Shown piece after piece: positions 5,502 through 22,307 of a stretch of DNA of 64,000 nucleotides. The stretch is from a virus. Lineage: Duplodnaviria > Heunggongvirae > Uroviricota > Caudoviricetes. Every line of letters begins with the position of its first letter. Position 1 is the stretch's first letter. The stretch is from the IMG/VR virus record IMGVR_UViG_3300034082_003579. One strand, 5' to 3'. A program made the translations under genes and the position numbers. A model generated the notes under the pieces. The model saw only the letters and a list, made by a program, of their open reading frames with translations, did not search any database and was not told where the DNA came from.

Positions 5502-6386
5502 TCAAGTACCCCAAGCATTACGCCACAAGTCTACCTGCAATCTTGGGCTGTAACGATATCCTCGCTCCATGGACATGTTTGCTACCTGCTGTGTGTTGAC
5601 GTTGTAGACGTCAGCAACACCGCCAATGGGCATCAAGTACACAGGACCCGAGAATCCAGCCTCGCGATAAAGAGCCACTGCACGATCCACATCGTTGAGA
5701 TCTTCTCTAGTGGCAACCACAAACTTCAAGTAAGTCACTCCAATGTCTTGATAGCTTTTAACAATTGCAGGCTTGATGGCATCTGTCCATTTCTCACCGG
5801 AACTGGGCAGCTTGGCTGACACACTGAAAGTTAGATTGTCGCGGTCTCTGCCAAATCGTGTAAACTCTTGAAACAGATATTCGTGAACTTCGGGATACAA
5901 TTCTTGAGTACCGTTGGTTTCAATGGTGACATTGCGTAGCCCGTGGCCTCGACATTTTTCAATCATTTCTGGATACAGTTGTTGATAAGCCAACAAGGGT
6001 TCTCCGCCTGTTATGACCAGGTGTATGTCGTCACTGGTTCTACTCCATGCCCATTGATTGCCAGGAATCATTCCGTGCATCTCGTCAATGATTTCGTCTA
6101 CGTTTTTATGATTGCTGAATTTCTTGAATTCAGGATAGATCGAAGCATACGAATCGCATCCGGTTGATACCAATGGTAGATCCTTAAAGCTTTTGTATTG
6201 ACTGAGATTTTCTATAACCACTGCTACTTCTGGGTTGGCTCCTGCAATCTCTTCGTTGCGATCACGCCCAAACTTCTTGCAGCGAAAGTTACATCCGTAT
6301 GTTCTAAAGAACACGCTGGGCACTCCAGCCCAGCGTCCTTCGCCTTGTAAACTGTAAAAGATTTCTGTGTAGTGTATTTTTTCCAT
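5502..6386 (-). CDS. queE: 7-carboxy-7-deazaguanine synthase (radical SAM)
   Basis: EIFYSLQGEG, RTYGCNFRC...CDS split Cys triad, ITGGEPL, IETNGT, SPRLQVDLW. Confidence 0.9.
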   Translation of the reverse strand: MEKIHYTEIFYSLQGEGRWAGVPSVFFRTYGCNFRCKKFGRDRNEEIAGANPEVAVVIENLSQYKSFKDLPLVSTGCDSYASIYPEFKKFSNHKNVDEIIDEMHGMIPGNQWAWSRTSDDIHLVITGGEPLLAYQQLYPEMIEKCRGHGLRNVTIETNGTQELYPEVHEYLFQEFTRFGRDRDNLTFSVSAKLPSSGEKWTDAIKPAIVKSYQDIGVTYLKFVVATREDLNDVDRAVALYREAGFSGPVYLMPIGGVADVYNVNTQQVANMSMERGYRYSPRLQVDLWRNAWGT

Positions 6387-6422
6387 GGTATATCCGCTGA
6401 GTTATTGATTAATTGTACTGTT

Positions 6423-6429
6423 TATTTAG
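6423..6429 (-). promoter_or_regulatory. T4 late-type promoter for queE
   Basis: CTAAATA in the only intergenic gap upstream of queE. Confidence 0.55.
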
Positions 6430-6436
6430 GTCAGTG

Positions 6437-6970
6437 TCAACCTGCGTGGTGACTTCCATCAGAATTCCGGTGCCACCACCATTCTTCCCAAGGGAAAACA
6501 ATCCATTGCGGATCATCTAGTTTGTTGATGGTTTCAGCAGCGTAAGACGGAACCAATTGGCTTTGACTTGCTTGATTGTCGTATAGAGTGGCTACACGAG
6601 TACTCTTACCCCAAACAAAGTCCCATTGTTCGTCATGTTCAAAGCAGTTGCCTTCCCAATCTCGTTTGATCCAGTTTAATGTGGTTCCCGAATCATTGAT
6701 ATCATCTACAATCAAAATGTTTTTGCCGTTGAACGCATCTTCGGCCATCCAAAAGTTGCTTTCGCATTCGTCGGCAGCACCGTCACGTAGTCTGACTTTC
6801 AGTGTTTCCATAGGACAATCAAGGTACTGACTGATCAAGTTGGCCGGTGTTAAGCCACCTCGTGTGATACCCACTACATAGTCTGGTGTCCATTTGTCCA
6901 AACACATTTGTCGAATTAGTTCCTGCACCTGTTGCTGTACATCGTGCCAGCTTACATATACTTTTTTCAT
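6437..6970 (-). CDS. type I phosphoribosyltransferase (Gpt-like)
   Basis: VVGITRGG, ILIVDDINDSGTT PRPP motif, WIVFPWE. Confidence 0.88.
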   Translation of the reverse strand: MKKVYVSWHDVQQQVQELIRQMCLDKWTPDYVVGITRGGLTPANLISQYLDCPMETLKVRLRDGAADECESNFWMAEDAFNGKNILIVDDINDSGTTLNWIKRDWEGNCFEHDEQWDFVWGKSTRVATLYDNQASQSQLVPSYAAETINKLDDPQWIVFPWEEWWWHRNSDGSHHAG

Positions 6971-7692: not shown

Positions 7693-8405
7693 TGTTTATA
7701 TACAGCTATAGCAGTGTCATTATGATGCTGAACTTGATAGCCAAGTTCAACAAGCCAATCTTGCAACAGTTTGGCTTCGTTGTTCCACCAAGTATTATAA
7801 CTCCATCGTTCATAGATGATGGGAGGAAAATCATGCACACGCAAGGTTTCAACAGCCCCTTTTAAAACCGACAACTCGTACCCTTCTACATCCAATTTGA
7901 TACAACAGATGGGATCATAAAATATCATAGAATCCAATGGTTTTATTTCTATCGTGATTTCTTTACCGTGCCCTACACTAATATCACTGTTTCCCCACAC
8001 AGCAGGATTGAGACTGAAAGCACCAATGTTTGCAGCTTGGTCGTACAGCGGTTCCTGTATTTGCATAACTCCGTACGAATCGCCCAGTGCATGGTTGTAT
8101 GTTTGAATATTAGTAATGTTATTCAGTTGAATATTTTGCAACAATATTTCTTGCATAGCCGGCAGCGGCTCAAATGCTGCAACCGTGTAGTTGGGTAATT
8201 GCTGTGCAACTGGCAAACACACTGTACCCATGTTGGATCCTATATCTAAAATTACGCCAGGTCCTCGTAGTCGTGCCTGTTCGACCACTAGATCAACTAC
8301 GTACCATTCATACTCGCCTTTTGATAACAGGGCTTGACTGATAAAATCTTGTGGATAACGAATAGCCATTTTGCCATGACGAGTTTGAATTATATGCACG
8401 ATCAT
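7689..8405 (-). CDS. FkbM-family methyltransferase
   Basis: ILDIGSNMG, AFEP, IKLDVEGYE. Confidence 0.88.
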   Translation of the reverse strand: MIVHIIQTRHGKMAIRYPQDFISQALLSKGEYEWYVVDLVVEQARLRGPGVILDIGSNMGTVCLPVAQQLPNYTVAAFEPLPAMQEILLQNIQLNNITNIQTYNHALGDSYGVMQIQEPLYDQAANIGAFSLNPAVWGNSDISVGHGKEITIEIKPLDSMIFYDPICCIKLDVEGYELSVLKGAVETLRVHDFPPIIYERWSYNTWWNNEAKLLQDWLVELGYQVQHHNDTAIAVYKQ

Positions 8406-9217
8406 GTTTGGTACTGCTTCAAGTGGCCATTAACATCGGCTGCCATCATTTTATCCCATGGTCCATTGGTTTTATTCTGTATACCTTGCCAGTGTGTTAA
8501 CTCATATCCCTGTTGCTTGAGATATTCTGCCAGTTTAACGGTTTCTTCAACACGAGCCCGACGATGCGTAATGTAATTGAAATCTCTTGGATCATCTGGG
8601 TTGCCTTCGAAAATTTGCCTACGTTTAAATGTGTTGTCGTTGTTTTTTCCACTTAGATCAAAACGTTCGTGTTCAACATTGACATCGATTTTGACCACAA
8701 TGTCTAGTAGCCAGGCAATCTGACTTAGCCAAGCATCAGTCAACTGGTGCTGACTCAAGTGACCAATTATCTCAAACCAGGTTCTTGGTACTATGGGAAA
8801 AATACTGTAAGGATGAAAATTATGCGTATTAAAGGCCTGCAAACAAAATCGTCCGTTGTGGCTGTTGATCACCGTGTCCCAGCCTGCAGTATTCATCACA
8901 GCATCATCGTTCCAAAATACAAACCAACTACCTGTGGCTTTTTTGGCCAATGCATTGATATAGAAATGTAAGTTTTCGTATCCCACTGGTTCAAATTGCA
9001 AACAGGTATACAGTGCATCAGAGGATTTTATTTTAGGTAACACATGTTTGGCAAACCAGGTATAGCTGTCGGCATCGTCGCTGTCGAATGCAAACAACCA
9101 TTCAAGTGCTGCAGGATCATCGGCCGAATCAATTAGACTAGAAACGCTGCGATCTAATTGTTCAGTGCGGCCTCGAGTAGGCAACAGTATACTAATCTTC
9201 GAGATATTGTTGGACAT
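8402..9217 (-). CDS. GT2-like glycosyltransferase
   Basis: ISILLPTRGR N-terminus, FWNDD motif. Confidence 0.65.
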   Translation of the reverse strand: MSNNISKISILLPTRGRTEQLDRSVSSLIDSADDPAALEWLFAFDSDDADSYTWFAKHVLPKIKSSDALYTCLQFEPVGYENLHFYINALAKKATGSWFVFWNDDAVMNTAGWDTVINSHNGRFCLQAFNTHNFHPYSIFPIVPRTWFEIIGHLSQHQLTDAWLSQIAWLLDIVVKIDVNVEHERFDLSGKNNDNTFKRRQIFEGNPDDPRDFNYITHRRARVEETVKLAEYLKQQGYELTHWQGIQNKTNGPWDKMMAADVNGHLKQYQT

Positions 9218-10028
9218 TTTGATGTAAAAAATTTAGCTGTGTTATCAAGCGTTCTAGGTCCGGTAGCGGCACCATGTTGGGACCATCGCTGGGTGCTGAA
9301 TCGGGATCTTCATGTGTTTCGATAAACACTGCCGCTACTGATCCGGTTGCTATTGCCGCCCGGGCCAATGGGGCGGCCATCCGTCGATCGCCGCCTGAGC
9401 TTGAGCCAAATGCTCCAGGCTGTTGGACACTATGTGTAGCGTCATAAACCACGGGATACCCAGTATCAGCCATAATGGGTAAGCTACGCATATCCACAAC
9501 CAAATTATTATATCCATGAGTATATCCTCTTTCACATAACATAATTCTTTCATTACCAGTAGAAGCAATTTTTTCAGCAACATTTTTCATGTCATGCGGT
9601 GCTAAAAATTGTCCTTTCTTTACATTGATCACACACCCAGTCCGACCGGCTGCTATCAACAGATCAGTCTGACGACAAAGAAATGCTGGAATTTGCAACA
9701 CATCGACGCCAGCATCGGCGCACACTTGAGCTTGATAGCTTTCGTGAATGTCGGTCAATACTGGAATACCGTAACGATGCTTGATACCGTTGAGAATTTT
9801 CAAACCCTCATCTATACCGACACCACGGGGTGTGACAGCACTACTTCTATTGGCCTTGTCAAAGCTACTTTTGTAAATAAGAGGAATACCTAATTTGCGA
9901 GTGATATCAAGAATTGATCCTGCCATGTGTTGAGCATGTGTTTCGCTTTCGATTTGGCACGGACCAGCAATGAGAACCAGGGGGCTGTCGCCGCCAATGG
10001 TCATGCGATTGATCTGGATCGTTTTCAT
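9192..10028 (-). CDS. kdsA: KDO 8-phosphate synthase
   Basis: IAGPCQIES, KSSFDKANRSS, LQIPAFLCRQTDL, NVKKGQF, CERG, DATHSVQQPG, ETHEDPDSAPSDG. Confidence 0.95.
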   Translation of the reverse strand: MKTIQINRMTIGGDSPLVLIAGPCQIESETHAQHMAGSILDITRKLGIPLIYKSSFDKANRSSAVTPRGVGIDEGLKILNGIKHRYGIPVLTDIHESYQAQVCADAGVDVLQIPAFLCRQTDLLIAAGRTGCVINVKKGQFLAPHDMKNVAEKIASTGNERIMLCERGYTHGYNNLVVDMRSLPIMADTGYPVVYDATHSVQQPGAFGSSSGGDRRMAAPLARAAIATGSVAAVFIETHEDPDSAPSDGPNMVPLPDLERLITQLNFLHQNVQQYLED

Positions 10029-10031
10029 TGA

Positions 10032-10517
10032 TTAATCCGCAAACTCGTTGTCTTCCCTATGTCCTGACCGTCCAGCCATATTGCTGTCAGTTTCTCGAAC
10101 TTCTACTCGGCAGCACCAAACTCGTTTGGCTTCTTCTGCACCGCAATTGGGCAAATAAATGGTATTGATATATTCATACAAGAAATCTGCTAGTCCTTCG
10201 CATCCAGTACGTTCAACTTCGGTAATCTTGGCCAAGCCCAGCTTTCCTAGGTTCAGCAAGTGTTCACGTTGTGGATCATCCTGTGCCACTAGCAAAGTAT
10301 GGTCAAACCATTCTTCTAGTTTGTCTTTTAGTTCTCTTAATCCACCAAAGTCAGTCACCCAGTTACGAGCATCTAGTGTGTCGGCTTCGAACTCAAAGTG
10401 AAAGCTCATGGCATATCCGTGAATTAAGTTGCAATGACTGTCAGCACGCCATTGACGATAAGCGACAGGACCAATTTGTCTGTAAGTTTTTGTTGAAAAG
10501 AATTTTTTATTTGACAT
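10032..10517 (-). CDS. queD: 6-carboxy-tetrahydropterin synthase
   Basis: HCNLIHGY, DFGGL, FDHTLL, EGLA, VRET; start set at ATG 10517. Confidence 0.9.
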   Translation of the reverse strand: MSNKKFFSTKTYRQIGPVAYRQWRADSHCNLIHGYAMSFHFEFEADTLDARNWVTDFGGLRELKDKLEEWFDHTLLVAQDDPQREHLLNLGKLGLAKITEVERTGCEGLADFLYEYINTIYLPNCGAEEAKRVWCCRVEVRETDSNMAGRSGHREDNEFAD

Positions 10518-10519
10518 GA

Positions 10520-10861
10520 TTAATGATTCCTTGATCCGTCGAATACACAATTGAATACGAGATCGATCTCGTGGGTGTTGATGACACGATGAAACGCACC
10601 GTCAGGAATGATTACTACGTCCCCGGTAGTGACTGCAAATGCATCGGAATCTTCGTCGCCTACAATCATCTGTCCTGTGCCAGCAATGAAGAAATATATT
10701 TCTTCTTGCCCAGCATGTCTATGCCCACGAGTCTGCCGATGAGCATGCAATCGTGTTTGACTCAAGGTCAAGTTTTTTAACTGTTGATTGTCGATGATCT
10801 GATAGGTTTCGTCATCTTTGACAATGTCTCCACCTATGTTGTAGTTTGTCAGATTTGCCAT
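10520..10861 (-). CDS. cupin domain protein
   Basis: HRHAGQEEIYFF...IPDGAFHRVIN metal-binding cupin motifs. Confidence 0.82.
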   Translation of the reverse strand: MANLTNYNIGGDIVKDDETYQIIDNQQLKNLTLSQTRLHAHRQTRGHRHAGQEEIYFFIAGTGQMIVGDEDSDAFAVTTGDVVIIPDGAFHRVINTHEIDLVFNCVFDGSRNH

Positions 10862-10867
10862 TATTGA

Positions 10868-10954: not shown

Positions 10955-12034
10955 TTAAACATTTAACTTTATGAGGTGTTTGCTTAAGAATTCTTTTAAT
11001 CTTTCTAATCGATACTTATGGTCGCAGACATGTTGGTGATTATAATCCAACACAGTTTGTGCTGTTTTGTAAACGTCTACATGATTAGATTTAGATAATT
11101 TTATCACTTGATCAAATGCCATAGACCACCGGGCATTGTGATCGGGTTCTTGGTCATAACTTTCATCAATAATTCCATGAAAGGTTTGATAGCCCATACT
11201 TTGTAAGTGTGCCAGTGATCCTTGTGGACCAAACATTACAAATATTTTTTTTTCAAACAACGGTTTGGCTGTTTTTTCTGAGAGAAAATTTGAAAACCAT
11301 GGATTGGTTTCGGCCACTATAGAATACCAACTGTTTTGATAAATTTTAAAAGGAATACTGTGGCTTACCCCAATGCCGTTGGCCAACCCAGGAAGTCCCC
11401 GCATGCTGTTTTTGCGGGCATCCTCAGTGATTATTGGATCATCATATTCAATTAGATCTGGACTGGTGTAGTTTACACTGCCATGTATGTTGAGAAAAGT
11501 TTGATTCAATAGATCCGCTTCGATTAATTTTTCATATACAAGTATTCTGTGCTCTTTTGCAATTCCCAGCAAAGCGTCAAATATTTTGGGTTTGCTTGTG
11601 GTCTGATCCCAAGACTGATATTTACATACATCAACTATTTTTGAAAAAAAATGTCCCAGATGATCAAACACCAAATCATCTGGGTAATGATCCATTACAA
11701 ATCTCCCGTTGGCAACACAAATCAAATTTTTATTATTAAAGTGCTCAGAAGTCATGTCATAATACGATTCCCATGGACCGATGATCAATTCGCTGGTGTA
11801 GCAAATAAGCAAATTGGCCCAACTGAGATCCTGCGGAGGCTGGTTTCCTCCGCCCCATGACCACCAATCCCTAACAACAACTTTTTTTCTATGGTCATTT
11901 TTAATTTGCTGGGGGTCAATATCGCTTACAATCTCTGCATTACCAAACAGTTCAATACCTAATCGATTAGCAAGATTCAATTCATACGTGTGATCTGGAT
12001 CCCAAATCAAAACATTTTTTAAATCAATAGTCAT
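10955..12034 (-). CDS. hypothetical protein, possibly GT-B/exostosin-like
   Basis: 359 aa; YSIVAET...FLSEKTAKP resembles the ENS...TEK segment of the GT10-like gene at 60.7 kb. Confidence 0.45.
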   Translation of the reverse strand: MTIDLKNVLIWDPDHTYELNLANRLGIELFGNAEIVSDIDPQQIKNDHRKKVVVRDWWSWGGGNQPPQDLSWANLLICYTSELIIGPWESYYDMTSEHFNNKNLICVANGRFVMDHYPDDLVFDHLGHFFSKIVDVCKYQSWDQTTSKPKIFDALLGIAKEHRILVYEKLIEADLLNQTFLNIHGSVNYTSPDLIEYDDPIITEDARKNSMRGLPGLANGIGVSHSIPFKIYQNSWYSIVAETNPWFSNFLSEKTAKPLFEKKIFVMFGPQGSLAHLQSMGYQTFHGIIDESYDQEPDHNARWSMAFDQVIKLSKSNHVDVYKTAQTVLDYNHQHVCDHKYRLERLKEFLSKHLIKLNV

Positions 12035-12051
12035 TATTTTTTGTAGTTATC

Positions 12052-12843
12052 TTAACGTGGAGCAAACTCTTGTTGTAGTTTGATATTGTCAAAAAACTCT
12101 TTCTTGGTGCCAGGATCGGACAAGAATGCCCCGCGAAGCACTGTGGTCTGTGTCAAACTTGAGTGTGCCATAATACCGCGATTCTCACAGCAGCCGTGTG
12201 TGGCTTGAATATACACACCCACATTCTCACTGTCTGTAGCCCGCATTATTTCTCTTGCAATGTCGTTGCAAAGTTCTTCCTGCAAAGTACCACGGCGGCT
12301 GCACCACTGAGCAATCCTAGTATACTTAGATAGCCCGATAAGTTTATTTGCGGCAATGATTCCAATGTAGGCAACACCGCTAACAGGCTGATGATGGTGA
12401 CTGCACATACTGCGCAACTCACTGCGCACAACCAACATACCTTCATATCTATCCTTTGAATCATTCGGAAACGCTGTTGCGTCTGGTGCCGGTTCATATC
12501 GCCCAGACATAATTTCGTACACATACATCTTGGCCAATCTGCGTGCTGTACCGCGACTGTTAGGATCTGTGACTGTGTCAATTACCAAACTTTGTAACAC
12601 GTCTTCAAATTTGACTGTGAGTTCGTCTACTAGTTGAGTTTTTTCCTCTTCTGTGATGTGTGCTGAAATGTTGTCACCGGCCCAATATCTGACCTTGCCT
12701 GCTTCTAAACGTTGCCGAATTACTTGTGATAAATGTTTTTCTTTATAGTTTTTATCGTCGTCACCTTGTTGTTGTGCGCCTGCAAGTGAGTTTCTTATTT
12801 CTTGGTCTCTTTTTAAGAGTTCTGGTGGTGTTGGATTGCCCAT
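12052..12843 (-). CDS. folE: GTP cyclohydrolase I
   Basis: TARRLAKMY, SMCSHHHQP, GLSKYTR, LQEEL, HGCCENRG. Confidence 0.95.
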   Translation of the reverse strand: MGNPTPPELLKRDQEIRNSLAGAQQQGDDDKNYKEKHLSQVIRQRLEAGKVRYWAGDNISAHITEEEKTQLVDELTVKFEDVLQSLVIDTVTDPNSRGTARRLAKMYVYEIMSGRYEPAPDATAFPNDSKDRYEGMLVVRSELRSMCSHHHQPVSGVAYIGIIAANKLIGLSKYTRIAQWCSRRGTLQEELCNDIAREIMRATDSENVGVYIQATHGCCENRGIMAHSSLTQTTVLRGAFLSDPGTKKEFFDNIKLQQEFAPR

Positions 12844-12892
12844 TTATTTCTCCGAGTTATTTGTTGTGGTCGAGGATGACCAATCATAATGT

Positions 12893-12921
12893 AGTATACA
12901 GTTTATTTAGATCTAAGTCAA
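12893..12921 (-). promoter_or_regulatory. nested sigma70 and late promoters for folE
   Basis: TTGACT-17-TATACT with CTAAATA (12904-12910) in the spacer. Confidence 0.65.
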
Positions 12922-12938
12922 TCAATTATTATTTTTTT

Positions 12939-13715
12939 TTAATAACGTGTTATCCAATATTCGTGCAATACTTTTAATTTTTCGTAGTCTACAGTAGATC
13001 CAATGGAATTTGCAATTTCTTTTAGAAAAAAATAAATTTTTTGAAAATCTAACAAATCATGCATTACTATATCAGGATTTGATATAGTAAAATTAACCCT
13101 TGTGTCATTTTCGACTACCCAATCTATCCATTCTTCTTTAGAAGAAAATGGACCATGCTTCCATTTATTTTTAAAAAACGCTGCGTTCTGATATTTTTGC
13201 TCTGGCATAGGTTTATCCATCATAGTATGGCCCATTTTTGTCACTTCGTCCCAGATATAAATCTTTTTGAGCAATCTTTTTTTGAAGCCCGGGTCATTGA
13301 TGTTTGCATCTAATTTAATAATTTTTGATTGTTTCCACCAATCTGGAACTACTTTTTTGTTTAAAAAATCCAAAATTATCTTGTCAGATTCCCATATCTC
13401 TTTAAAATATTGGCTACTTTGAATTTGGCACAAATCATCAAATTCCGATAATGATAATTCTTCTCCTCTTGGCATAGTTCTACTAAAAAATGTCAAATCC
13501 CAACAAGTAATAGGTTCAGATGCCAACCAGAGTTCTTTATTGTCTGGATTCCAGAGATTTTTTATATAATTTTCCCAAGATAAATTTTGAAATTCAACAT
13601 CGGGATTCCAGTGTGCAATTTTCTCAATGGTTGTTAATGCTAAACACAAAAACTTTCCGCCTGTTCCAGGTCGATAATTAACAATCATCCATTTGTTGGG
13701 ATTAAGATAAGTCAT
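12939..13715 (-). CDS. hypothetical protein (AT-rich island)
   Basis: 258 aa; N-terminal PGTGGKFL loop, possibly sulfotransferase/P-loop-like. Confidence 0.5.
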   Translation of the reverse strand: MTYLNPNKWMIVNYRPGTGGKFLCLALTTIEKIAHWNPDVEFQNLSWENYIKNLWNPDNKELWLASEPITCWDLTFFSRTMPRGEELSLSEFDDLCQIQSSQYFKEIWESDKIILDFLNKKVVPDWWKQSKIIKLDANINDPGFKKRLLKKIYIWDEVTKMGHTMMDKPMPEQKYQNAAFFKNKWKHGPFSSKEEWIDWVVENDTRVNFTISNPDIVMHDLLDFQKIYFFLKEIANSIGSTVDYEKLKVLHEYWITRY

Positions 13716-14343
13716 TGACTATTTTCATTGTTGAGCAATCGGGATACTTTAAAAACATACTATCAGTCTGAGAAATCAATGATTGGGAACTTAATAGATT
13801 CATTCCAACAATGCATTCTTCAGGCCTTAAATAATAGTGAAATCCAGGTTCAAAAATTTCTTGATCTATCCAATTTTTATATTTAAAAATATCTCTACCG
13901 TCGTATCTCATTCTATTAGCACGCTCAGCCAATATTGGATCATCAGTTAATATTGCACCGCCCTTGCCTATTGATAATGGTTTTTCTCTATTAAAACTTA
14001 TGCATTGCACTTGATTTTTTTCATACATATTTTTTTTAAAATATCTTGCACAATCCCAGATGTGAGTGCTTGTAAAATTATATTTTTTGTCTGCAAACCA
14101 ATTAACTTCATTGAATTGATAGTTAATATTTAATTTATGCATTAACATTACAACACTAAGATATGTTCTACATGGAAAACTTGTTTTTTTTGGAAGATTA
14201 ATTCGTAGAGCTATTTCAATAGCATGGGTGCAGGAATCAGTTACGATAGCATATGGAGCACCGGTATATTGTTGCAACATGCATTCGAATTCTTTTACCG
14301 CATCAAATGGATTACTATATTGATCTAGAGATTTAATTTGCAT
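13702..14343 (-). CDS. short DegT/DnrJ/EryC1/StrS PLP aminotransferase
   Basis: FECMLQQYTGAPYAIVTDSCTHA, SFNREKPLSIGKGGAILTDD (PLP lysine). Confidence 0.8.
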   Translation of the reverse strand: MQIKSLDQYSNPFDAVKEFECMLQQYTGAPYAIVTDSCTHAIEIALRINLPKKTSFPCRTYLSVVMLMHKLNINYQFNEVNWFADKKYNFTSTHIWDCARYFKKNMYEKNQVQCISFNREKPLSIGKGGAILTDDPILAERANRMRYDGRDIFKYKNWIDQEIFEPGFHYYLRPEECIVGMNLLSSQSLISQTDSMFLKYPDCSTMKIVNDLS

Positions 14344-14849
14344 TATAAATGCCCTGTTATTTGAACAGTGTAACGAGGCTGAACACCAAAATTACCAGCG
14401 AAATGCGGAACATCATGATTCCAATGTACATAATCTCCGGCTTTCCACGGCATCAATGGTTTACCGTCAATTTCGAAATAATGTCCGCTGCACCAATTTT
14501 CGAGAAAAACCACTGCGCGACAAACATCTATAGATTCCACTCCGAATCGTTTTGTGTATGATGTATAACTGTCTGAGTGCATTGGTAAAGCATCACACGT
14601 ATTCATTTTGTAAAAAGCAATACTGACATTTTTCCAAGGGAACAACATAAAAAATTTGTTTGCCAACTCCGGCATCGGATTAGGCATACTGTACAATTCT
14701 CCGTTAAGATTTAAATGATGATAACCTTCGTTAATCCACCGAACTAAATCATGTGTATTTTTTAACGGATAGTATTGATAATTGAGATTCTTAAAACTTA
14801 AATCCCACCATGGGTCTATGTGTCCAGTTTCCCATTTATTCGCTGACAT
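14343..14849 (-). CDS. 2OG-Fe(II)/cupin-type oxygenase
   Basis: LPMHSD HxD, WNHDVPH, RYTVQITG; start set at ATG 14849. Confidence 0.7.
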   Translation of the reverse strand: MSANKWETGHIDPWWDLSFKNLNYQYYPLKNTHDLVRWINEGYHHLNLNGELYSMPNPMPELANKFFMLFPWKNVSIAFYKMNTCDALPMHSDSYTSYTKRFGVESIDVCRAVVFLENWCSGHYFEIDGKPLMPWKAGDYVHWNHDVPHFAGNFGVQPRYTVQITGHL

Positions 14850-15201
14850 GATTTTTTTTGATTTCACGCACTGTGTCCTTGTTTAAAATATCGGCAATTT
14901 TGTTTTTAGTTTTAATTCGAATATTGTTCCAATTTCTGATTTCTATTGCACGTCTTCCGATTTCTTCTAAACTTATCATATTTTCATGCCCACTCTTTAA
15001 TTCGCTTTCTAACATCCATATTTTTTCGTGAATTGACATTAGCTCTTGAATTTCGTTTTTTATCCGTTCGACGGAAATATTATCAATTTGTTTTTTATAA
15101 AACTCAAGTTCATCTTTGTTTAATCCATTGGTTTTTTTAAATTTAATACAAGCAATGCTGTACCTGTCAATGAGTTCAATGATCGGAAATATAATGTTCA
15201 T
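14836..15201 (-). CDS. hypothetical helical protein
   Basis: 121-aa ORF coupled to both neighbours. Confidence 0.7.
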   Translation of the reverse strand: MNIIFPIIELIDRYSIACIKFKKTNGLNKDELEFYKKQIDNISVERIKNEIQELMSIHEKIWMLESELKSGHENMISLEEIGRRAIEIRNWNNIRIKTKNKIADILNKDTVREIKKNHVSE

Positions 15202-16226
15202 ACGTATAAATTTTCTATTTTCTCAGGGTCGTTGATAATATCTTGTATGGTGTTATTGGTTGCATTTGGTCTACACGGCGAGCATAATCCCACATTGGTA
15301 TGGTTGTATATGTCATGATGTCGCTGTGACATCCACAAATCTCTAAAATCATTCTCGTCCCATCTACCTAGGCTAAAGTTAGGGTTACCTTTGTTGTCAC
15401 AACAGACATAAATGTATCCGTCGGCACAAAACACAGGAAAATGATACATCTGATGACAACGTTTATATTTTCTAGGTTGTGTTTTATTTTCATTGATCCA
15501 ATATCGAATACCTGTTCTTTTTGACGCTTGTTCAATCCACAGTTTAAGTTGTTCGGTGATAGTGTGTGCTATATTATTATAGATAACTGGTCTGAAATAT
15601 AACTTTCTGCCATTGATCGATTTTACATAATCAAATAAATTGTCAATAGCTTCTTGATTATCGTTGTAAGGATTAATCAGACATTTAAAATCGACATTAA
15701 CTCCAATTTTAATCAGTTCTTTGGCATTTTCGGTTACTCTAGGAAAAAGACTTTTTGCTGTTAGGCTTCGGCGTATTTTTTCGTATAGATCCTCGGTTCC
15801 GGCATCAACGTCGATTCCGATCCAGGCTATTTTTTTTAATTTTTCAATTGGAACACTGTCAAGTAATCGATCGAGTTTGGATCCATTGGTGGTAATTGAC
15901 GTTAAAAATCCCAAGTCTATGGTATGCTCGATAACATGCTCGTATCCATTCAATACTGTGGGTTCTCCCCCACCGGGATAGGTAATAGTATGAGTAGTTC
16001 CAAAGCTATTAGGAGAATGTGATCTCCAAGTTGATAGTTTATCCAATAATCCAATATATTCTTTATAATTTTTTTGTACTGGTGCCATCTTTCGATGAAC
16101 CGCGGAATTGCAATAGTAACAATCTTGATTGCAAATATTAGTCAAGTCGATATCTACCTGCGCTGGCAGTAGAATTTTATGGTCTTGATTTTGCATCCAA
16201 TGTACTAACTCGGCCTCTCGATACAT
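15198..16226 (-). CDS. radical SAM protein with SPASM/twitch domain
   Basis: CNQDCYYC, GGGEPT, C-terminal C...DGYIYVCC...CSPC. Confidence 0.88.
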   Translation of the reverse strand: MYREAELVHWMQNQDHKILLPAQVDIDLTNICNQDCYYCNSAVHRKMAPVQKNYKEYIGLLDKLSTWRSHSPNSFGTTHTITYPGGGEPTVLNGYEHVIEHTIDLGFLTSITTNGSKLDRLLDSVPIEKLKKIAWIGIDVDAGTEDLYEKIRRSLTAKSLFPRVTENAKELIKIGVNVDFKCLINPYNDNQEAIDNLFDYVKSINGRKLYFRPVIYNNIAHTITEQLKLWIEQASKRTGIRYWINENKTQPRKYKRCHQMYHFPVFCADGYIYVCCDNKGNPNFSLGRWDENDFRDLWMSQRHHDIYNHTNVGLCSPCRPNATNNTIQDIINDPEKIENLYV

Positions 16227-16320: not shown

Positions 16321-17268
16321 TCATCGATTATACCAAGTCCAGGCATGCTGAACTATATCTTGTAATGCAAAAGCAGGTTGCCAACCGGTGGCATTTGACC
16401 ATCTAGCAGGTGATGCTGTCAACTGTGCTGGATCACCTGTACGTCGAGGACCTGTGCTGACAGCAACCTTGCGACCGATAACAGACCTGGCCATGTCAAT
16501 AATTTCCATGTTGCTGTGTCCTTGATCTGTTCCTAGATTAAAGATACCTGTTACATCTTGCTGTACTGCTAGAACATGTGCTTGGGCCAAATCTTCTACG
16601 TGAACATAATCACGTATGCAAGTGCCGTCGGCAGTGTCGAAGTCAGTTCCATTCAGTACAAACTCTTGATTGTCTCTCGCACTTTCTAGTACTCTGGCAA
16701 TGATGTGTGTGGCTCCAGGTGCTTGTCCGTGTCGAGCCTGGGGGTCAGCTCCACAGGCATTGAAATATCTAAATGCAGTGTACTTGAGATTGTAAGCACG
16801 GTGATAGGCCTGTAGCATAAATTCCACCATCAGCTTGCTTTCGCCGTAGGGACTGATGGGCATGGGAGGATCTTCTTCACTGCATGGTAACATGATAGGT
16901 TCACCATAGACCGCAGCACTGCTACTGAATATCAATTTGATATCGGTTAACTTGTTAGCTACTAGATAATCCAGCATGCATTTGGTTTTGACAAAATTAT
17001 TTTCATAATATGTGCTGGGATCCAATATGCTGGGACCAACTAAACTGGTCCCAGCACAATGAACAATAGCAACAGGTTGCGCACGAGCTATCAAGTGCAA
17101 ACAATTGGTTTCAGAAAAGTCCGAAACTAAAAAATCATCCACTACCGATTGAATAGCAGTGCCGGGCGTGTGTTGATCCACACCAATGACCTGATATCCA
17201 GCCGCTGACAATGCCAGCACAGTTTGTCCGCCGATATAGCCGGCTGCTCCAGTTACAATTACATTCAT
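16321..17268 (-). CDS. galE: UDP-glucose 4-epimerase
   Basis: TGAAGYIG, SSSAAVYG, YGESK, RYFNACGA, RDYVHVEDLA. Confidence 0.93.
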   Translation of the reverse strand: MNVIVTGAAGYIGGQTVLALSAAGYQVIGVDQHTPGTAIQSVVDDFLVSDFSETNCLHLIARAQPVAIVHCAGTSLVGPSILDPSTYYENNFVKTKCMLDYLVANKLTDIKLIFSSSAAVYGEPIMLPCSEEDPPMPISPYGESKLMVEFMLQAYHRAYNLKYTAFRYFNACGADPQARHGQAPGATHIIARVLESARDNQEFVLNGTDFDTADGTCIRDYVHVEDLAQAHVLAVQQDVTGIFNLGTDQGHSNMEIIDMARSVIGRKVAVSTGPRRTGDPAQLTASPARWSNATGWQPAFALQDIVQHAWTWYNR

Positions 17269-18470
17269 TCTTCTATCTTCCGTACATGATATTTAGGTTG
17301 ACTCACATGATCTCTGTAGCGATTTCCAGCACGATTCCATTGCTCACCGTTGCCTTCCAATATGTCCACAATGCGATCAACAGTGCTGTTGGTCCAATCA
17401 CTGATGAGACCCATGTTGTGATGTGGTTCACGCAAGAGATTCTGCATCTTGTGATAAGCATCGTCAATAGACCAAGGTACGTACAATCGGTTGGGATCAT
17501 CGGCAAAGGTTTCAGGGAAACTGCGATAAGCAGGATACAACACATTGCAACCCACTGTGTCTGCTTCACTCACTGTGTTGCTAACCCAGTCTTGCAAGGC
17601 ACAGTTAAACAACACACGAGTATCGTTGAGCAAGGCATAGTAATCATTCTTGCTTAGATTTTCATAAATTGCAAGACGTCCTTGTTGTTGCATTTGTCTT
17701 GCACGAGCAACATATTCCGGATTGTTACTACGCAACGGACCTCCAGACATGATAGCAAACTCGCATGGTTCAGTGGTTAACTGAGCATACATGTCAATGA
17801 GATCCATGAAGAATCCCGGCTGTTTCTCCTGATCAAATCTGGCAGCAAATGCCACACGTCTGGGTCTTTCTGCAAAAGGTTTGACGTTTGCCAAACCACC
17901 GATGCGTTCTAACACTTCGTCTTTGCCGAATGCTAGTCCTGAGATGTTGTAGATAGGAGCTGTCCACCCAGCAATACGCATGTGAGCAACCATTTCTTCA
18001 TTGGTGGCCAATACGTGAACATTGGGAACCTGATTTACCATGCGTTCATAAGTTGACATCCAGCCGGCCATGCCCCAGACATGCACAAAGTCGTCGGGAT
18101 CAATTGCCTGTGCCAAACAACGAACATAGATTTGTGGTTGAAGATTCGTTGGAACCTGATCCATGATATAGGGCAAGCTCTCAATACCAGGCGAAAACAT
18201 GTCCTCAAAATACACAACGTCATCGCTAGTAACTTCGCCATTTCGCATCATCTTGACAAGATTCATCATCTGACTCATGGCAAAGTAACTGCGTCCGTGT
18301 GCGTCTAACACTTGTCCTACTGAGATGGCACCTGAATTGTCAAGTGTTTCACCAGGAACATACACTACATCAAGTCCTCGACGTTCAAACACACGCCGAT
18401 TCCATTCAGTCAGTTGCAGAGTGTATCTTGATTCGTACGACTCTAGTGCCATGTAAAATAATTTACGCAT
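17265..18470 (-). CDS. GT-B fold glycosyltransferase
   Basis: AARFDQEKQP, QDWVSNTVSEA acceptor/donor motifs; start set at ATG 18470 (MRKLFYM). Confidence 0.7.
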   Translation of the reverse strand: MRKLFYMALESYESRYTLQLTEWNRRVFERRGLDVVYVPGETLDNSGAISVGQVLDAHGRSYFAMSQMMNLVKMMRNGEVTSDDVVYFEDMFSPGIESLPYIMDQVPTNLQPQIYVRCLAQAIDPDDFVHVWGMAGWMSTYERMVNQVPNVHVLATNEEMVAHMRIAGWTAPIYNISGLAFGKDEVLERIGGLANVKPFAERPRRVAFAARFDQEKQPGFFMDLIDMYAQLTTEPCEFAIMSGGPLRSNNPEYVARARQMQQQGRLAIYENLSKNDYYALLNDTRVLFNCALQDWVSNTVSEADTVGCNVLYPAYRSFPETFADDPNRLYVPWSIDDAYHKMQNLLREPHHNMGLISDWTNSTVDRIVDILEGNGEQWNRAGNRYRDHVSQPKYHVRKIEE

Positions 18471-18472
18471 GA

Positions 18473-18685
18473 TTAACGCACCCGTGGTGCATCTTGCATC
18501 CACATGTCTTTGACATGCTTGCCCTGCACACGTTTGTTGAATTGTTGGTAAGCATAGCTTTTCCAATTGTATAGATCTGCTTCGTTAAATTTATATCCAT
18601 AGTCGCGACAAAATTCAAGAAACTGTTCGAGGTCGTCGAAAATTTGTGTTACTTTAGGATTAGATTTGATTGATGGCTTGGCCAT
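18473..18685 (-). CDS. small hypothetical protein
   Basis: 70 aa, AAGGA SD. Confidence 0.75.
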   Translation of the reverse strand: MAKPSIKSNPKVTQIFDDLEQFLEFCRDYGYKFNEADLYNWKSYAYQQFNKRVQGKHVKDMWMQDAPRVR

Positions 18686-18694
18686 TGTGTTTCC

Positions 18695-19159
18695 TTAGAT
18701 TACTATGTGTTGATAAGGGCGGTGAGTGTTATATTTAATCAAGCAGCCGTTCTCACCATCTTCGGCTACTTCTATCCAGACACTACGTCCAGGATATCTT
18801 GCGGCAATCTGTACGTACAGATCGTCGGCAATCATTTCGCATGATTTATAATCTAAACTTAAAACGGTATTCGTATTATGGTTATTGGGGGAACGGTAAA
18901 GGTTTTCCAACCAGCGTTTGAATTGGATAAACTCAATGTCCCGATCGTTGTGCCAGACGTCAATCCACACCCTGAAGTGAAAGATGTGACGATGAGGATA
19001 GCCAAGAAACGATACATCATATTCATCTCCAGTGGCCAATGCAGGATCTGTCAAGGCCGCAGGATATTTATGGATACCTTCTTTTTGGAAGGTTACCCAT
19101 ATTTGTCTCTGTGCTGCTTCTTTAATGCGTTCTATTTGTTCGCGTTCTGCTTGAATCAT
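18695..19159 (-). CDS. dpdL: QueD-like T-fold protein, DpdL (CDG decarboxylase) candidate
   Basis: LGYPHRHIF fits LxxxHRHxF; DRDIEFI, SCEMIA and VAEDGENG follow the T-fold layout. Confidence 0.7.
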   Translation of the reverse strand: MIQAEREQIERIKEAAQRQIWVTFQKEGIHKYPAALTDPALATGDEYDVSFLGYPHRHIFHFRVWIDVWHNDRDIEFIQFKRWLENLYRSPNNHNTNTVLSLDYKSCEMIADDLYVQIAARYPGRSVWIEVAEDGENGCLIKYNTHRPYQHIVI

Positions 19160-19163
19160 TTTT

Positions 19164-19730
19164 TTACTCGAAAAATTTGTTATAGGTCGATTTTGAAGTA
19201 TTTTCTAATTTTTTCATGGCATTGTTGCTGATTCTAAATTCATATGACCTTGATCCTTTTACTGTTTGTTCCAGATAACCCCATGCAGTCCCGTATATAT
19301 AGGGATCATCATTGCCGTTTATTAATTTTTTTCTTGCAGCTTCGTATGCTTCTTCAATTAAATCTTGAATATACTTAGGTGAAAAATCATATACTTCTCC
19401 TGATATAATCAGTTGATCTTTTGTTTTAACTCGATACTGTTGTTGCATTTTTTCAAACACAATAGATTGGCAATAAGGAGTAACCTTGATATACTCCGGC
19501 GACATTTTACACACACCCTGTGCTGAAGTTGCGTCGACATCACGTGATTTCACTTCTAACGGATTATATCCAGGATGTTTAATATCAGCCCCGGCTGCAG
19601 TAGAATCGATAGGTATACCTTGGTCTATCAGTATTTGTTCTATAGCTCTTCCTGCATGCCCAAATTCTTTGTTGGGTACCGACATACCGACTATATTTAC
19701 ATTTAGTCCGGTTATTTTTATCTGTGACAT
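19164..19730 (-). CDS. PD-(D/E)xK endonuclease, MutH/Sau3AI-like
   Basis: GHAGRAIE...ADIKHPGYNPLEVKS catalytic pattern; start set at ATG 19730 (TAATG coupling); AT-richer than flanks. Confidence 0.6.
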   Translation of the reverse strand: MSQIKITGLNVNIVGMSVPNKEFGHAGRAIEQILIDQGIPIDSTAAGADIKHPGYNPLEVKSRDVDATSAQGVCKMSPEYIKVTPYCQSIVFEKMQQQYRVKTKDQLIISGEVYDFSPKYIQDLIEEAYEAARKKLINGNDDPYIYGTAWGYLEQTVKGSRSYEFRISNNAMKKLENTSKSTYNKFFE

Positions 19731-20095
19731 TAGCTGGGTCTCCGTAAAAATTCCCAAGACACAATTCGAGCAATAGCAGCAGCTTTGTCATCAGTTTCGT
19801 CAGGAATGATATGATGTTTGGTGATGCTGCGATCGTTTTTACTATCGTATGTTTGTACTTCTACAATCATACCACCTTCGGCTGCTGCCACTTTGAAACG
19901 GATAGGACGCTCTAAGTCAATGCTGTCGCTGGTGCTGCAAATAACAGAGTCTCTTTCCATTGGTGGTTCAATGTAGTTATTTTTGATCTTCTTGTCCAAG
20001 TAATCCTGTTCGGCTTTGAGTTCAGGGTATACAACACCTGCACGATGCCAGCACCAACGTGCTTTACGATAAAACCATCGATCAAAAAATTTCAT
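19730..20095 (-). CDS. hypothetical protein
   Basis: Start ATG 20095 by ATGA coupling (MKFFDRWFYRK). Confidence 0.7.
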   Translation of the reverse strand: MKFFDRWFYRKARWCWHRAGVVYPELKAEQDYLDKKIKNNYIEPPMERDSVICSTSDSIDLERPIRFKVAAAEGGMIVEVQTYDSKNDRSITKHHIIPDETDDKAAAIARIVSWEFLRRPS

Positions 20096-20613
20096 TTGAT
20101 TACTTTGTCCTTTGTGTATTGAGACCACGGTGTGAACACCGCACGATTTTGTAATGCATGTAAGCTGTGACACCACACTCCGGGATTGGTTGCTGCAAAG
20201 TCTCGATCATCCAGTTTGATAGTGGCGCTGTATCCCAACTGACTCATGTAAGGTAACTTGACACTTATCATGGGAATAAAGTTATGATATTCTGTTAGCC
20301 CCGATTCGCACAGCCCTTCAACACTGGTGCTGTCGATATCAAGTGTACACAGTAAACCAGTTTTCAACAATGGTTTAATCATGTCTTCCCATAATGTCCA
20401 AGTATGGAAATCATTTACAGGAGGATTAGGAAAACTCATGTTGGCACCAAAGTAGATGTGATTGGTTTCGTAAGTTGAACATGCCAGCGCATGTTTGATG
20501 TCTTCTACTGATTGCACACCTACTACAAACAGAGTATCCATATCATACGCCGGAGTGTGTTCAACTTCCTTGCCAAAGAAAAATCTTACGTTGTCGTGCC
20601 CTTCTCGTTTCAT
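20092..20613 (-). CDS. hypothetical protein coupled to dpdA
   Basis: 173 aa, ATGA overlap with the TGT-like gene. Confidence 0.8.
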   Translation of the reverse strand: MKREGHDNVRFFFGKEVEHTPAYDMDTLFVVGVQSVEDIKHALACSTYETNHIYFGANMSFPNPPVNDFHTWTLWEDMIKPLLKTGLLCTLDIDSTSVEGLCESGLTEYHNFIPMISVKLPYMSQLGYSATIKLDDRDFAATNPGVWCHSLHALQNRAVFTPWSQYTKDKVIK

Positions 20614-22307
20614 ATGCTTTGTTCCAGTTTGTCTAGTTTGCCAATGTCAAGGTCATCAACTGCGATATCCTCTTCTCTGGTATCATATAGTGTTTTGTAT
20701 TGACTTTGTGCGTTGACTGCACGTTTTCCGGTGGCACCGCGTGTTCCTACAACCCGTTCCCATACTTTAGCATGATCTACAATAATTTGCAAGCTCTTTT
20801 GGCGGTCGCGGGCAGAGAAAATACGATCAATGACCTTGTCTATGTCATAGTCAGGGTTATACGGATGTACCATCATGTCTGGGCATACACCCGAATCAAA
20901 CATACGATTGGCACGCTGTACAGCTTCGATGTGTGTCCAGACATTATGACTCATAAGCAAGGCATAGCTGAAACTATCCCACGACGTTTTACCTTCCTTG
21001 CCAATCTTATTCAAGTCGCCTGGCTTGTAATAACACACATCCGAAATCTTCATACGGCTCGTAATAGGTGAATCTTCAAAATTAGGATGTATTGCTTCGT
21101 CATCCTTGGGATTTCTTTTATCTTGCCTGACAGCATCACCAAATGATCTTGAGTCTACAGCATACTTCTTATCGTCCACCGTAGGACTCATGTTATAACT
21201 CCACTTCTTGCGATTTTCAGTAGTGATGTTGTGATACAGTTGTCCATTAGCAGTTGCCAGGAATGGACTAGCACAATCAAAGCTGATAGTAAAGGTTGGA
21301 TTATGATACTTCCTCACACTACGCTGAATGGCAGTGAGCAGCACTGCCCATTCCAGTTTTGATGTACCCAAGAAGTGCATCCAGTCGTGTATGCCGGATT
21401 CCAGCAACCCGTCATGTATTAAATGTACCAGTCGTTTGAGAACCAGTTGTACATCACACATGTTCTGCCCTCCCATGCCCCATCCGTTAAAGTGGCGCCC
21501 AGGATACTTAACTGGATCACAGTAGTCTTTCATGTCATTGTACCAATCGTCGGCTTCGTCGTGGGTGCCTCCTTGCAAGACATTTAGAATCTTAGTGTCA
21601 CCGTAGCGATTGTTAATCCAGTACTCGTTGTTATACTTGGTTGCATTTACAGCATCAATGTAGCTGGCAATACCAGATGCAGCAGATGCTTTGGGATCGC
21701 GAAACGTCCAAGTTGGAATATCCAATGTCATGCCGTACGTGGCAATACCCATTTGCCATTTAAGTACAACTTCACGCATTTTTTGTGCAGCATTCAATTT
21801 ATTTTGATACTCTTTAATAAGATCAACTTTTATAGTCTTAGGGTTACCATGTTTGTCTAATTTAGGTTTGCCTGCCTTATCAAGTACCGGTCGGATTTCA
21901 GTTTTACGAGTAATGCAATCTGTCATCTTAGCAGATACTTCTGCACTAGTAGGGTCGCGCCACTCGCCTTCCCACACACCCTTGGCAATCTGGAACCCAC
22001 CTGAGTCAGCCAACATGATAGTGTCGGCTTCTCTGTTGCGAACCATATCCTCTTTGGCCACAAACTTGGACAAGTCCAAGTCGGCATGACCTGCTGAATA
22101 CAAACTGTACTTGTAAGGAAACAGACCTTTTTGCGAATTTAACCAGTTGAGTTGTTCCATGTCAGGAATACCTGCTGGCATACGTGCGGCGTCGATGTAA
22201 TTTTCAGTACGTTGACGACCCACATAGTTGGCATAGAAACTGCTGATGGCTGGAAGAAATACAGCGTAGTCATTCTGATTTGCTGTAAAATTGTGTTGTT
22301 CGATCAT
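20610..22307 (-). CDS. dpdA: TGT-fold guanine transglycosylase (DpdA-like, DNA modification)
   Basis: LADSGGFQ, TLDIP, NVLQGG, GWGMGG, HFLG, SFDCASP and MSHN map onto the TGT catalytic motifs; lies with folE/queD/queE. Confidence 0.8.
   Translation of the reverse strand: MIEQHNFTANQNDYAVFLPAISSFYANYVGRQRTENYIDAARMPAGIPDMEQLNWLNSQKGLFPYKYSLYSAGHADLDLSKFVAKEDMVRNREADTIMLADSGGFQIAKGVWEGEWRDPTSAEVSAKMTDCITRKTEIRPVLDKAGKPKLDKHGNPKTIKVDLIKEYQNKLNAAQKMREVVLKWQMGIATYGMTLDIPTWTFRDPKASAASGIASYIDAVNATKYNNEYWINNRYGDTKILNVLQGGTHDEADDWYNDMKDYCDPVKYPGRHFNGWGMGGQNMCDVQLVLKRLVHLIHDGLLESGIHDWMHFLGTSKLEWAVLLTAIQRSVRKYHNPTFTISFDCASPFLATANGQLYHNITTENRKKWSYNMSPTVDDKKYAVDSRSFGDAVRQDKRNPKDDEAIHPNFEDSPITSRMKISDVCYYKPGDLNKIGKEGKTSWDSFSYALLMSHNVWTHIEAVQRANRMFDSGVCPDMMVHPYNPDYDIDKVIDRIFSARDRQKSLQIIVDHAKVWERVVGTRGATGKRAVNAQSQYKTLYDTREEDIAVDDLDIGKLDKLEQSI

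Follow-up and report, generated by a model that had tools for sequence, protein, structure and literature searches.

A predicted QueC-less 7-deazaguanine DNA-modification locus with a DpdL-linked glycosyltransferase within a freshwater giant-phage replication module

A probable QueC-less modification system

The IMG/VR record IMGVR_UViG_3300034082_003579 is a 64,000-nucleotide stretch of DNA from a phage of the Caudoviricetes, which was analysed over its full length (hereafter, the window). The genes between positions 5,502 and 22,307 probably constitute a 7-deazaguanine DNA-modification system that works without QueC and forms part of a giant phage's replication module. The core of this reading, first put forward in a preliminary description made from the sequence, is supported by the pathway genes, a DpdL homologue, a 565-amino-acid (aa) protein with the fold of tRNA-guanine transglycosylases (TGTs) and the synteny with related phages, while the product is predicted from the genes. 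Four features set the locus apart from the known DpdL-type pathway: a DpdA-like family without a name, a constant GT4-like glycosyltransferase partner, a 173-aa partner protein and a salvage-type phosphoribosyltransferase (PRTase). DNA modifications with 7-deazaguanines are a major phage counter-defence, and 2'-deoxy-7-deazaguanine (dDG) has so far been proven only in phiST-like Cellulophaga phages.

Genes for CDG synthesis and the missing QueC

As the preliminary description had indicated, FolE, QueD and QueE are all encoded on the minus strand, and each matches a family model (Table 1). FolE is present in 46 of the 80 related viral contigs (IMG/VR loci carrying the gene for the 565-aa TGT-like protein) that served as our comparison set. 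The QueD of the window shares 70% identity with that of phage ACP17 and scores above the PF01242 cut-off, yet its motif is CxxxHGY, while the signature in literature is CxxxHGH; phage-type QueD therefore has a tyrosine at the position of the second zinc histidine. The CxxxHGY motif is common to QueD of the window and of ACP17, phiST and BUCT-ZZ01 (L005:3805-4281; L004:3343-3972; L006:4884-5351). For QueE, several NCBIfam equivalog models match with scores below their cut-offs. Its cysteines C32, C36 and C77 and the TGGEP motif are invariant in an alignment of 18 orthologues that includes those of phiST and PA5oct. The spacing of these cysteines (C32-x3-C36-x40-C77) is unusual.

No queC, queF or gat was found when the 64 kb were searched by tblastn with the proteins of Vibrio phage 2.275.O, nor does the PP-loop motif [SG]GGxD[ST] occur in any of the six reading frames, which bears out the absence of these genes noted earlier. 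For this phage the queC search covers the window, and complete relatives served for a whole-genome view. The complete genomes of the DpdL-encoding phages PA5oct, ACP17, Phosso, BUCT-ZZ01 and X1 contain no QueC above the Pfam cut-off, and neither does a 236-kb relative that CheckV rates as 100% complete. Likewise, queC, queF and gat occur in 0 of the 80 related loci. Weak PP-loop matches in relatives belong to NadE-like or other open reading frames (ORFs) that lack a counterpart in the window. A NadE-like PP-loop ORF of 255-269 aa is present in two related giant-phage contigs, L088 (G005:24641-27829) and L090, and in L088 it shares a 3.2-kb stretch with QueE; in these relatives it might have a role in the amidation of 7-carboxy-7-deazaguanine (CDG).

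DpdL

Cui et al. (2023; PMC10516641) defined DpdL by the change of the QueD motif CxxxHGH into LxxxHRHxF and proposed that it acts as a CDG decarboxylase. The preliminary description had given this definition correctly, and the protein of the window, with LGYPHRHIF, is a clear member of the family. It shares 52.6% identity with the DpdL of ACP17 and 31.7% with that of phiST, and residues L52, H56, H58, F60, H30, H70, E76, E108 and E133 are invariant across 24 sequences including both. In the window as well as in its relatives, DpdL co-occurs with FolE, QueD, QueE and a DpdA-like gene, and QueC is absent. The DNA of phiST is fully substituted with dDG (302,000 dDG per million nucleotides; PMC10516641). 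In Vibrio phage Bakedbeans, the DpdL domain lies within an open frame of 394 aa (L097:7179-8360; annotated as gp176 with 383 aa), and may there be fused to an N-terminal domain.

A 565-aa protein with the TGT fold

The 565-aa protein encoded next to the clamp gene had been described as a TGT-fold enzyme. No match was obtained with Pfam, PHROG, NCBIfam or PDB sequences (phmmer and hmmsearch), and only fold and profile-profile methods succeeded. An AlphaFold2 model, built from an alignment of 92 diverse members of the TGT-like family, reached a mean predicted local distance difference test score (pLDDT) of 93 and a predicted template modelling score of 0.91. The top Foldseek matches of this model are exclusively tRNA-guanine transglycosylases (probability 1.0). 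VIA-align superposes model residues 8-481 on bacterial, archaeal and human TGTs with Z scores of 17.5-18.5 and a root-mean-square deviation of ~4.5 Å over ~300 residues. The TGT fold is thereby assigned with high confidence.

In a profile alignment with Escherichia coli Tgt (hhalign 92%, E 6e-7), the motifs DSGGFQ, MTLD, LQGG, HFLG and SFDCASP of the window protein fall on the catalytic motifs of Tgt. Across the 92 family members, D101 (DSGGFQ) is conserved in 100%, D196 (MTLD) in 99% and D344 (SFDC) in 100%; Q245/G246 and H311 are also conserved. TGT and DpdA enzymes share three invariant aspartates (D95, D130 and D256 in DpdA) for general acid/base catalysis, base recognition and nucleophilic attack (PMC10164549), to which D101, D196 and D344 correspond. 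The Pfam model PF01702 does not match the window protein and reaches E 0.04 at best in two of the 92 relatives. This test has little power, since PF01702 likewise fails to detect two accepted DpdA proteins, those of phiST and ACP17.

The family of the 565-aa protein is large and viral, with more than 7,500 homologues in metagenomes and 856 clusters at 50% identity. A contig scan of cellular genomes gave no real relative.

Placement among the DpdA subfamilies

The preliminary description had called for a placement of this enzyme among DpdA1-4. It is no simple member of any of the four, and its nearest named relatives are the DpdA2 proteins. With hhalign, the window family aligns with the DpdA of ACP17 (96%), that of X1 (95%) and DpdA2 of Vibrio phage VH7D (96%, E 2e-9), the latter alignment extending from the DSGGxQ motif through the SxD motif. 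A hidden Markov model of the window family detects ACP17 DpdA with E 1e-8, and ACP17 DpdA is itself of the DpdA2 type, as it matches DpdA2 of Vibrio phages nt-1 and VH7D at ~1e-38. Among the structures in BFVD, the best named neighbours of the 565-aa fold are a phage 'tRNA guanine transglycosylase' and DpdA2 of nt-1 (E 1.7e-9), both at ~1e-9. The link to DpdA3 of phiST (CGPG_00065/gp042) is weaker, with hhalign at 85% over 82 columns and a BFVD E value of 0.012. BLASTP of the 565-aa protein against known DpdA proteins gave E 0.08 for DpdA2, with ACP17 DpdA marginal, and nothing for phiST DpdA3. Because these links lie outside the reach of BLAST, whereas DpdA2 members match each other at ~1e-38, the 565-aa family is best read as separate and unnamed, with DpdA2 as its nearest named relatives. 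As to a clustering with tRNA-acting TGTs, named beforehand as a contrary outcome, the family is closer to DpdA2 (96%) than to E. coli Tgt (92%). Neither a name for this family nor a glycosylated deazaguanine was found in the searchable literature; the supplementary tables of Cui et al. lie outside that search and may list members.

Missed by Pfam, PHROGs and NCBIfam alike, this TGT-fold family probably provides many giant phages with their DNA transglycosylase, so that such modifications would be undercounted in genome surveys.

Conserved gene order in related loci and cultured phages

The order observed over the 80 loci is DNA polymerase, clamp, TGT-like gene, 173-aa gene, (small ORFs), DpdL, GT4-like glycosyltransferase, (GalE, DegT and others), FolE, QueD, GT-A-like glycosyltransferase and, further on, PRTase, QueE and RNase H. 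Clamp and TGT-like gene adjoin in all 80 loci. DpdL is found in 64 of them, i.e., in nearly all that reach far enough. In the Pseudomonas jumbo phage PA5oct the TGT-like gene likewise follows polymerase and clamp, and is followed by the glycosyltransferase-like gene, DpdL, PRTase, QueE and RNase H. Vibrio phage 2.275.O, also a cultured jumbo phage, has the same beginning, but there QueF, YhhQ, QueC, Gat and FolE come next. The TGT-like family therefore travels with whichever 7-deazaguanine pathway a phage has, and its linkage to 7-deazaguanine genes, first noted for the window, recurs in PA5oct, in 2.275.O and in the 80 viral contigs. Sinorhizobium phage Phosso (L002, L095) shows a different arrangement, in which polymerase, clamp, DpdL, glycosyltransferase, FolE and QueE lie together and the TGT-like gene is located ~170 kb away, beside primase and helicase.

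According to a 2025 preprint (PMC12191111), PA5oct DNA resists restriction enzymes whose sites contain G, and a nuclease able to sense modified guanine acts against this phage. QueE and PTPS are the sole candidate genes named in that study; the transglycosylase, DpdL and the base itself were not identified. The present family thus offers a candidate gene set for the modified guanine of PA5oct, a phage of therapeutic interest.

A GT4-like glycosyltransferase linked to DpdL

Downstream of DpdL, the window encodes a 401-aa protein (from the likely ATG start) that resembles GT4-type glycosyltransferases of the GT-B fold. Foldseek searches with its model (pLDDT 67) returned MshA, BshA, LmbT, WaaG and glycogen synthase (E 1e-10). 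The profile of the family matches PglA/WlaC over the donor-binding stretch GRLxxxK (GRxxxxK motif), and R211, K216 and E302 are invariant across a long and a short type of the protein. Pfam models of the GT1 clan match below their cut-offs.

The gene follows DpdL in all 47 loci with enough sequence to tell, at a distance of ~230 bp in most. By tblastn it had seemed to be missing in 21 of these 47, but a profile that combines the long and short types recovers all 21 with E 1e-96 or better. A 516-kb contig encodes a protein 98% identical to that of the window. Among cultured phages, 28 records in the phage collection carry DpdL, and all 16 records with the glycosyltransferase-like gene fall among them, the two genes being within ~2 kb of each other. 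These 16 comprise PA5oct-like phages, ACP17, X1/BUDD and cyanophage BUCT-ZZ01 (64% identical), to which a profile search adds Phosso and BCSR5. Six divergent cultured lineages combine the gene with DpdL, its identity being only 22-24% in PA5oct, ACP17 and X1. Around the DpdL of phiST, the only phage with proven plain dDG, no such gene was seen over 6 kb to either side, nor was one seen within 8 kb of the DpdL of RHph_I1_18 and Bakedbeans. The strict pairing, together with the lack of a glycosyltransferase near the DpdL of phiST, is the strongest reason to suspect a final product beyond plain dDG.

The most likely role of the GT4-like enzyme, judged from this context and from its intact residues for binding NDP-sugars, would be to add a sugar to the base or its precursor, although this step is speculative. 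We tentatively propose that the many phages with the DpdL-GT4 pair (among them the present phage and the cultured PA5oct, ACP17, X1, BUCT-ZZ01, Phosso and BCSR5) may carry a sugar-bearing 7-deazaguanine in their DNA. With the same reserve, the unnamed DpdA-like family and the GT4-like enzyme may be its makers, and in the present phage GalE, a second glycosyltransferase and amino-sugar/radical enzymes may elaborate it. Such a base would be a glycosylated purine in DNA and could explain why DpdL and DpdA of ACP17 alone gave no product in E. coli. The strict coupling of glycosyltransferase and DpdL predicts an undescribed base that is testable in cultured phages.

Proposed pathway and competing explanations

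The following route is proposed. FolE, QueD and QueE, assigned by homology, would convert GTP into CDG, which DpdL is predicted in literature to decarboxylate into free 7-deazaguanine. After replication, the TGT-fold enzyme would replace guanines of the duplex phage DNA by this base, as suggested by its fold, conserved residues and context, with D344 as the presumed nucleophile and D101 as the general acid/base. The released guanine would probably be salvaged to GMP by the PRTase, which resembles xanthine-guanine phosphoribosyltransferase (XGPRT). Guanine salvage is the simplest role we infer for this protein, with deazaguanine nucleotide synthesis as the alternative. Speculatively, the GT4-like enzyme would attach a sugar to the base or a precursor, using a donor supplied by GalE, and the final base could then be more than plain dDG.

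Several points weigh against this reading. The system is known for this phage from its genes alone, and queC was sought in 64 kb of a larger phage genome. The TGT-like protein fails all curated family models, and a DNA rather than an RNA substrate is deduced from context, namely the replication module, the linkage with que genes and dpdL, and the G-modified DNA of PA5oct. The tRNA-acting TGTs have a zinc site of the form CxCxxC...H. This Cys/His site is not conserved in the 92 family members, whose equivalent region has C425 in 57% and H454 in 88%. As for the sugar, plain 7-deazaguanine has no obvious hydroxyl to which a glycosyltransferase could attach it. The glycosyltransferase model is of only moderate quality (pLDDT 67), and the solved structures nearest to it are of enzymes with small-molecule substrates. 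Finally, the decarboxylase activity of DpdL is a prediction, and DpdL plus DpdA of either phiST or ACP17 yielded no dDG in E. coli (PMC10516641).

A possible competing explanation, which we take seriously without favouring it, concerns the sugar genes. They may serve surface glycans (host lipopolysaccharide or capsule, or the virion) or pterin glycosides in an early region that tolerates insertions, so that the base would be plain dDG, as it is in phiST. Indeed, KdsA and FkbM have counterparts in none of the 80 loci, a cupin and the unknown genes at 6967, 10955 and 12939 have them in only one or two, the genes at 12.9-16.2 kb form an AT-rich island, and small molecules or lipids are the substrates of the GT4 fold neighbours, one of which is a tetrahydrobiopterin glucosyltransferase. 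This explanation accounts less readily for the GT4-like gene itself, with its fixed place after DpdL in all 47 informative loci and its pairing with DpdL in six divergent cultured lineages, with DpdL present in every phage record that has it, and with no such gene found near the DpdL of phiST, the one phage with proven plain dDG.

It is unlikely that the modified nucleotide is instead made at the monomer level, in which case the PRTase would convert 7-deazaguanine or CDG into a nucleotide that is then reduced, phosphorylated and incorporated by the polymerase, leaving the TGT-like protein with a minor or different role. The PRTase gene does neighbour QueE in the window, PA5oct, BUCT-ZZ01 and 21 viral loci, the whole cluster is flanked by polymerase/clamp on one side and RNase H on the other, and Cui et al. 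noted the nucleoside of 7-amido-7-deazaguanine (ADG) in the cytoplasm of CP220-infected cells (PMC10516641). Yet all 80 loci encode the TGT-like protein, whose three catalytic aspartates are retained, guanine salvage accounts for the PRTase equally well, and all characterised phage 7-deazaguanine systems are post-replicative (PMC10516641). That the TGT-fold enzyme modifies host or phage tRNA is very improbable: the solved structures nearest in fold are without exception tRNA-guanine transglycosylases and the DNA substrate is here deduced rather than directly shown, but a search for tRNA genes in the window found none, the gene lies between the clamp and DpdL/FolE in the replication module of the 80 loci, DpdA2, a validated DNA enzyme, is a closer relative of the family than E. 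coli Tgt is, its members do not conserve the motif of the zinc subdomain seen in tRNA TGTs, and the virion DNA of PA5oct is G-modified (PMC12191111).

Comparison with known systems

The proposed post-replicative system is most similar to that of phiST (FolE, QueD, QueE, DpdL and DpdA3; PMC10516641), with which it shares the QueC-less logic, a homologous LxxxHRHxF DpdL, the CxxxHGY QueD and the QueE cysteine spacing. Unlike phiST, whose DpdA3 has 259 aa, the window encodes a transglycosylase of 565 aa that is only marginally similar. In addition, the GT4-like protein, the 173-aa partner and the PRTase have no counterpart within 6 kb on each side of the phiST DpdL, and sugar-nucleotide genes are a further addition in the window. 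The DpdA2 proteins from Vibrio phages VH7D and nt-1, the nearest named relatives of the window enzyme, have been shown experimentally to insert 7-cyano-7-deazaguanine (preQ0) or 7-aminomethyl-7-deazaguanine (preQ1) in DNA. Identity to DpdA2 is ~22%, however, and the window protein has a long insertion at residues ~120-173 and a C-terminal extension; its gene is moreover fixed after the clamp and is here paired with DpdL instead of QueC/QueF.

PA5oct (Wroclawvirus) encodes a member of the same TGT-like family (34% identity) in its gp316-gp322 region, together with a glycosyltransferase-like protein, DpdL, PRTase, QueE and RNase H. Its glycosyltransferase-like protein is of the short type, and it lacks the block of GalE, KdsA, DegT and radical S-adenosylmethionine (SAM) genes of the window. 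Bacterial DpdA/DpdB of Salmonella Montevideo (PMC10164549) share with the present protein the TIM-barrel TGT fold, the three aspartates and a proposed double-displacement exchange of guanine in duplex DNA. They differ in that no DpdB-like ATPase partner was seen here, in the base (7-deazaguanine versus preQ0) and in the setting (phage counter-defence versus a restriction-modification island).

Enzymes of the GT-B fold that attach sugars to a modified base include the T4 alpha- and beta-glucosyltransferases, which act on hydroxymethylcytosine, and the GT4-type QTMAN, which acts on queuosine in tRNA. For the DpdL-linked GT4-like enzyme they may serve as a functional analogy, with the difference that plain 7-deazaguanine is without the hydroxyl that those enzymes use.

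Partner, sugar-nucleotide and accessory genes

The gene for the 173-aa protein follows the TGT-like gene in 74 of the 80 loci, and a homologue is found directly upstream of ACP17 DpdA. Its family alignment has 29 invariant columns; Pfam searches with 51 members, a PDB profile search and a protein atlas gave no match. No homologue of the 173-aa protein was found in PA5oct, and no PRTase in the ACP17 region examined. The 173-aa protein and the PRTase are partners that were not included in the earlier reconstitution attempts. In the interval from the TGT-like gene to DpdL lies a 197-aa ORF that is less constant (Table 1), and a MutH-like reading of it finds no support from Pfam, PHROG or PDB sequences by phmmer, which is a weak test.

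Table 1. Features of the window discussed in the text, with positions in the 64,000-nucleotide stretch.
Feature	Positions	Strand	Basis or remark
QueE, radical SAM CDG synthase	5502-6386	minus	phrog_2076, E 2.7e-50
XGPRT-like PRTase	6437-6970	minus	PF00156, 63 bits; NF006613, E 1e-14, below cut-off
GT-A-like glycosyltransferase	8402-9217	minus	phrog_14945, E 6.7e-12; weak PF00535 match
KdsA, Kdo-8-phosphate synthase	9192-10028	minus	NF003543 equivalog, 398.7 bits (cut-off 242)
QueD, 6-carboxytetrahydropterin (CPH4) synthase, phage type with CxxxHGY	10032-10550	minus	PF01242, 58.9 bits; phrog_2389, E 4e-41
FolE, GTP cyclohydrolase I	12052-12843	minus	PF01227, 129.7 bits (cut-off 27)
AT-rich five-gene island: radical SAM/SPASM protein, unknowns of 121 and 174 aa, truncated DegT-type aminotransferase, unknown of 258 aa	12939-16226	minus	Pfam and NCBIfam
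GalE, UDP-glucose 4-epimerase	16321-17268	minus	TIGR01179 equivalog, 304 bits (cut-off 262); overlaps GT4-like gene
GT4-like (GT-B) glycosyltransferase, 401 aa from likely ATG	17265-18470	minus	fold, profile, invariant residues
DpdL, QueD-like T-fold protein, predicted CDG decarboxylase, LGYPHRHIF	18695-19159	minus	phrog_17812, E 2e-34; homology
ORF of 197 aa between TGT-like gene and DpdL	19164-19757		homologues in 8 of 80 loci
Partner protein, 173 aa	20092-20613	minus	overlaps end of TGT-like gene
TGT-fold, DpdA-like DNA transglycosylase candidate, 565 aa	20610-22307	minus	AlphaFold model, fold and profile matches
Probable sliding clamp, 256 aa	22304-23074	minus	Phosso homologue and atlas neighbours
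Family B DNA polymerase	24067-26577	minus	replication-module context

About 15 sugar, methyl and radical enzymes had been reported as interleaved with the pathway. This count is roughly right, as ten have family support and several unknown proteins make up the rest. Besides the enzymes in Table 1, those with family support include an RfaE-domain-II-like nucleotidyltransferase, a cupin and an FkbM methyltransferase. A tblastn match to GalE occurs in 30 of the 80 loci; around 14 of these have 53-61% identity and stand directly after a long-type GT4-like gene, the others having 21-26% identity. The island downstream of GalE is patchy in relatives, with DegT in 18 of 80 loci. Its GC content also differs: positions 12001-16000 have 0.34-0.36 compared to 0.40-0.44 in the flanks, and this drop over the block of radical SAM, DegT and unknown genes suggests a recent insertion. 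The GT-A-like gene usually adjoins QueD in relatives (after QueD in 10 loci), and in the window KdsA sits between the two. A further branch of the clade encodes a nucleotidyltransferase and an SDR enzyme between polymerase and clamp. Taken over the loci, GalE, DegT, the GT-A-like protein and this last pair show that sugar-nucleotide enzymes are recurrent in the module.

The idea that further modification is plausible consequently fares differently from gene to gene. It holds best for the GT4-like enzyme, which is constant after DpdL, and next for GalE and DegT, and it does not extend to KdsA and FkbM, both without counterparts, nor to the cupin and the three unknowns with one or two. As they have almost no counterparts in the 80 loci, KdsA, FkbM, the cupin and several unknowns look like lineage-specific, accessory insertions, and we do not assign them to the DNA chemistry.

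Replication context and source of the DNA

All genes between ~2.4 and 26.6 kb of the window are on the minus strand. Directly upstream of the TGT-like gene, as first described, lies a gene whose 256-aa product is probably the sliding clamp: it has 31% identity (E 2e-34) with a Phosso protein annotated as such, and its protein-atlas neighbours are PCNA/gp45-like. Pfam and PDB sequence searches with it gave no match. Avoidance of 4-mer palindromes, examined in the window as a sign of protected DNA, was uninformative, with all observed-to-expected ratios at 0.81-1.28.

The family B polymerase has its closest relatives in giant phages, i.e., Phosso (50% identity), Agrobacterium phage Atu_ph07 (48%) and Vibrio phage 2.275.O (45%). 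In Logan contigs, the stretch 17265-22307 recurs nearly verbatim in at least 24 lake-water metagenome runs. Judging by this giant-phage-like polymerase and by the recurrence in lake water, the source is an uncultured freshwater giant phage. Persistence of the phage in freshwater follows from the dates of the matching runs, 2020 and 2024.

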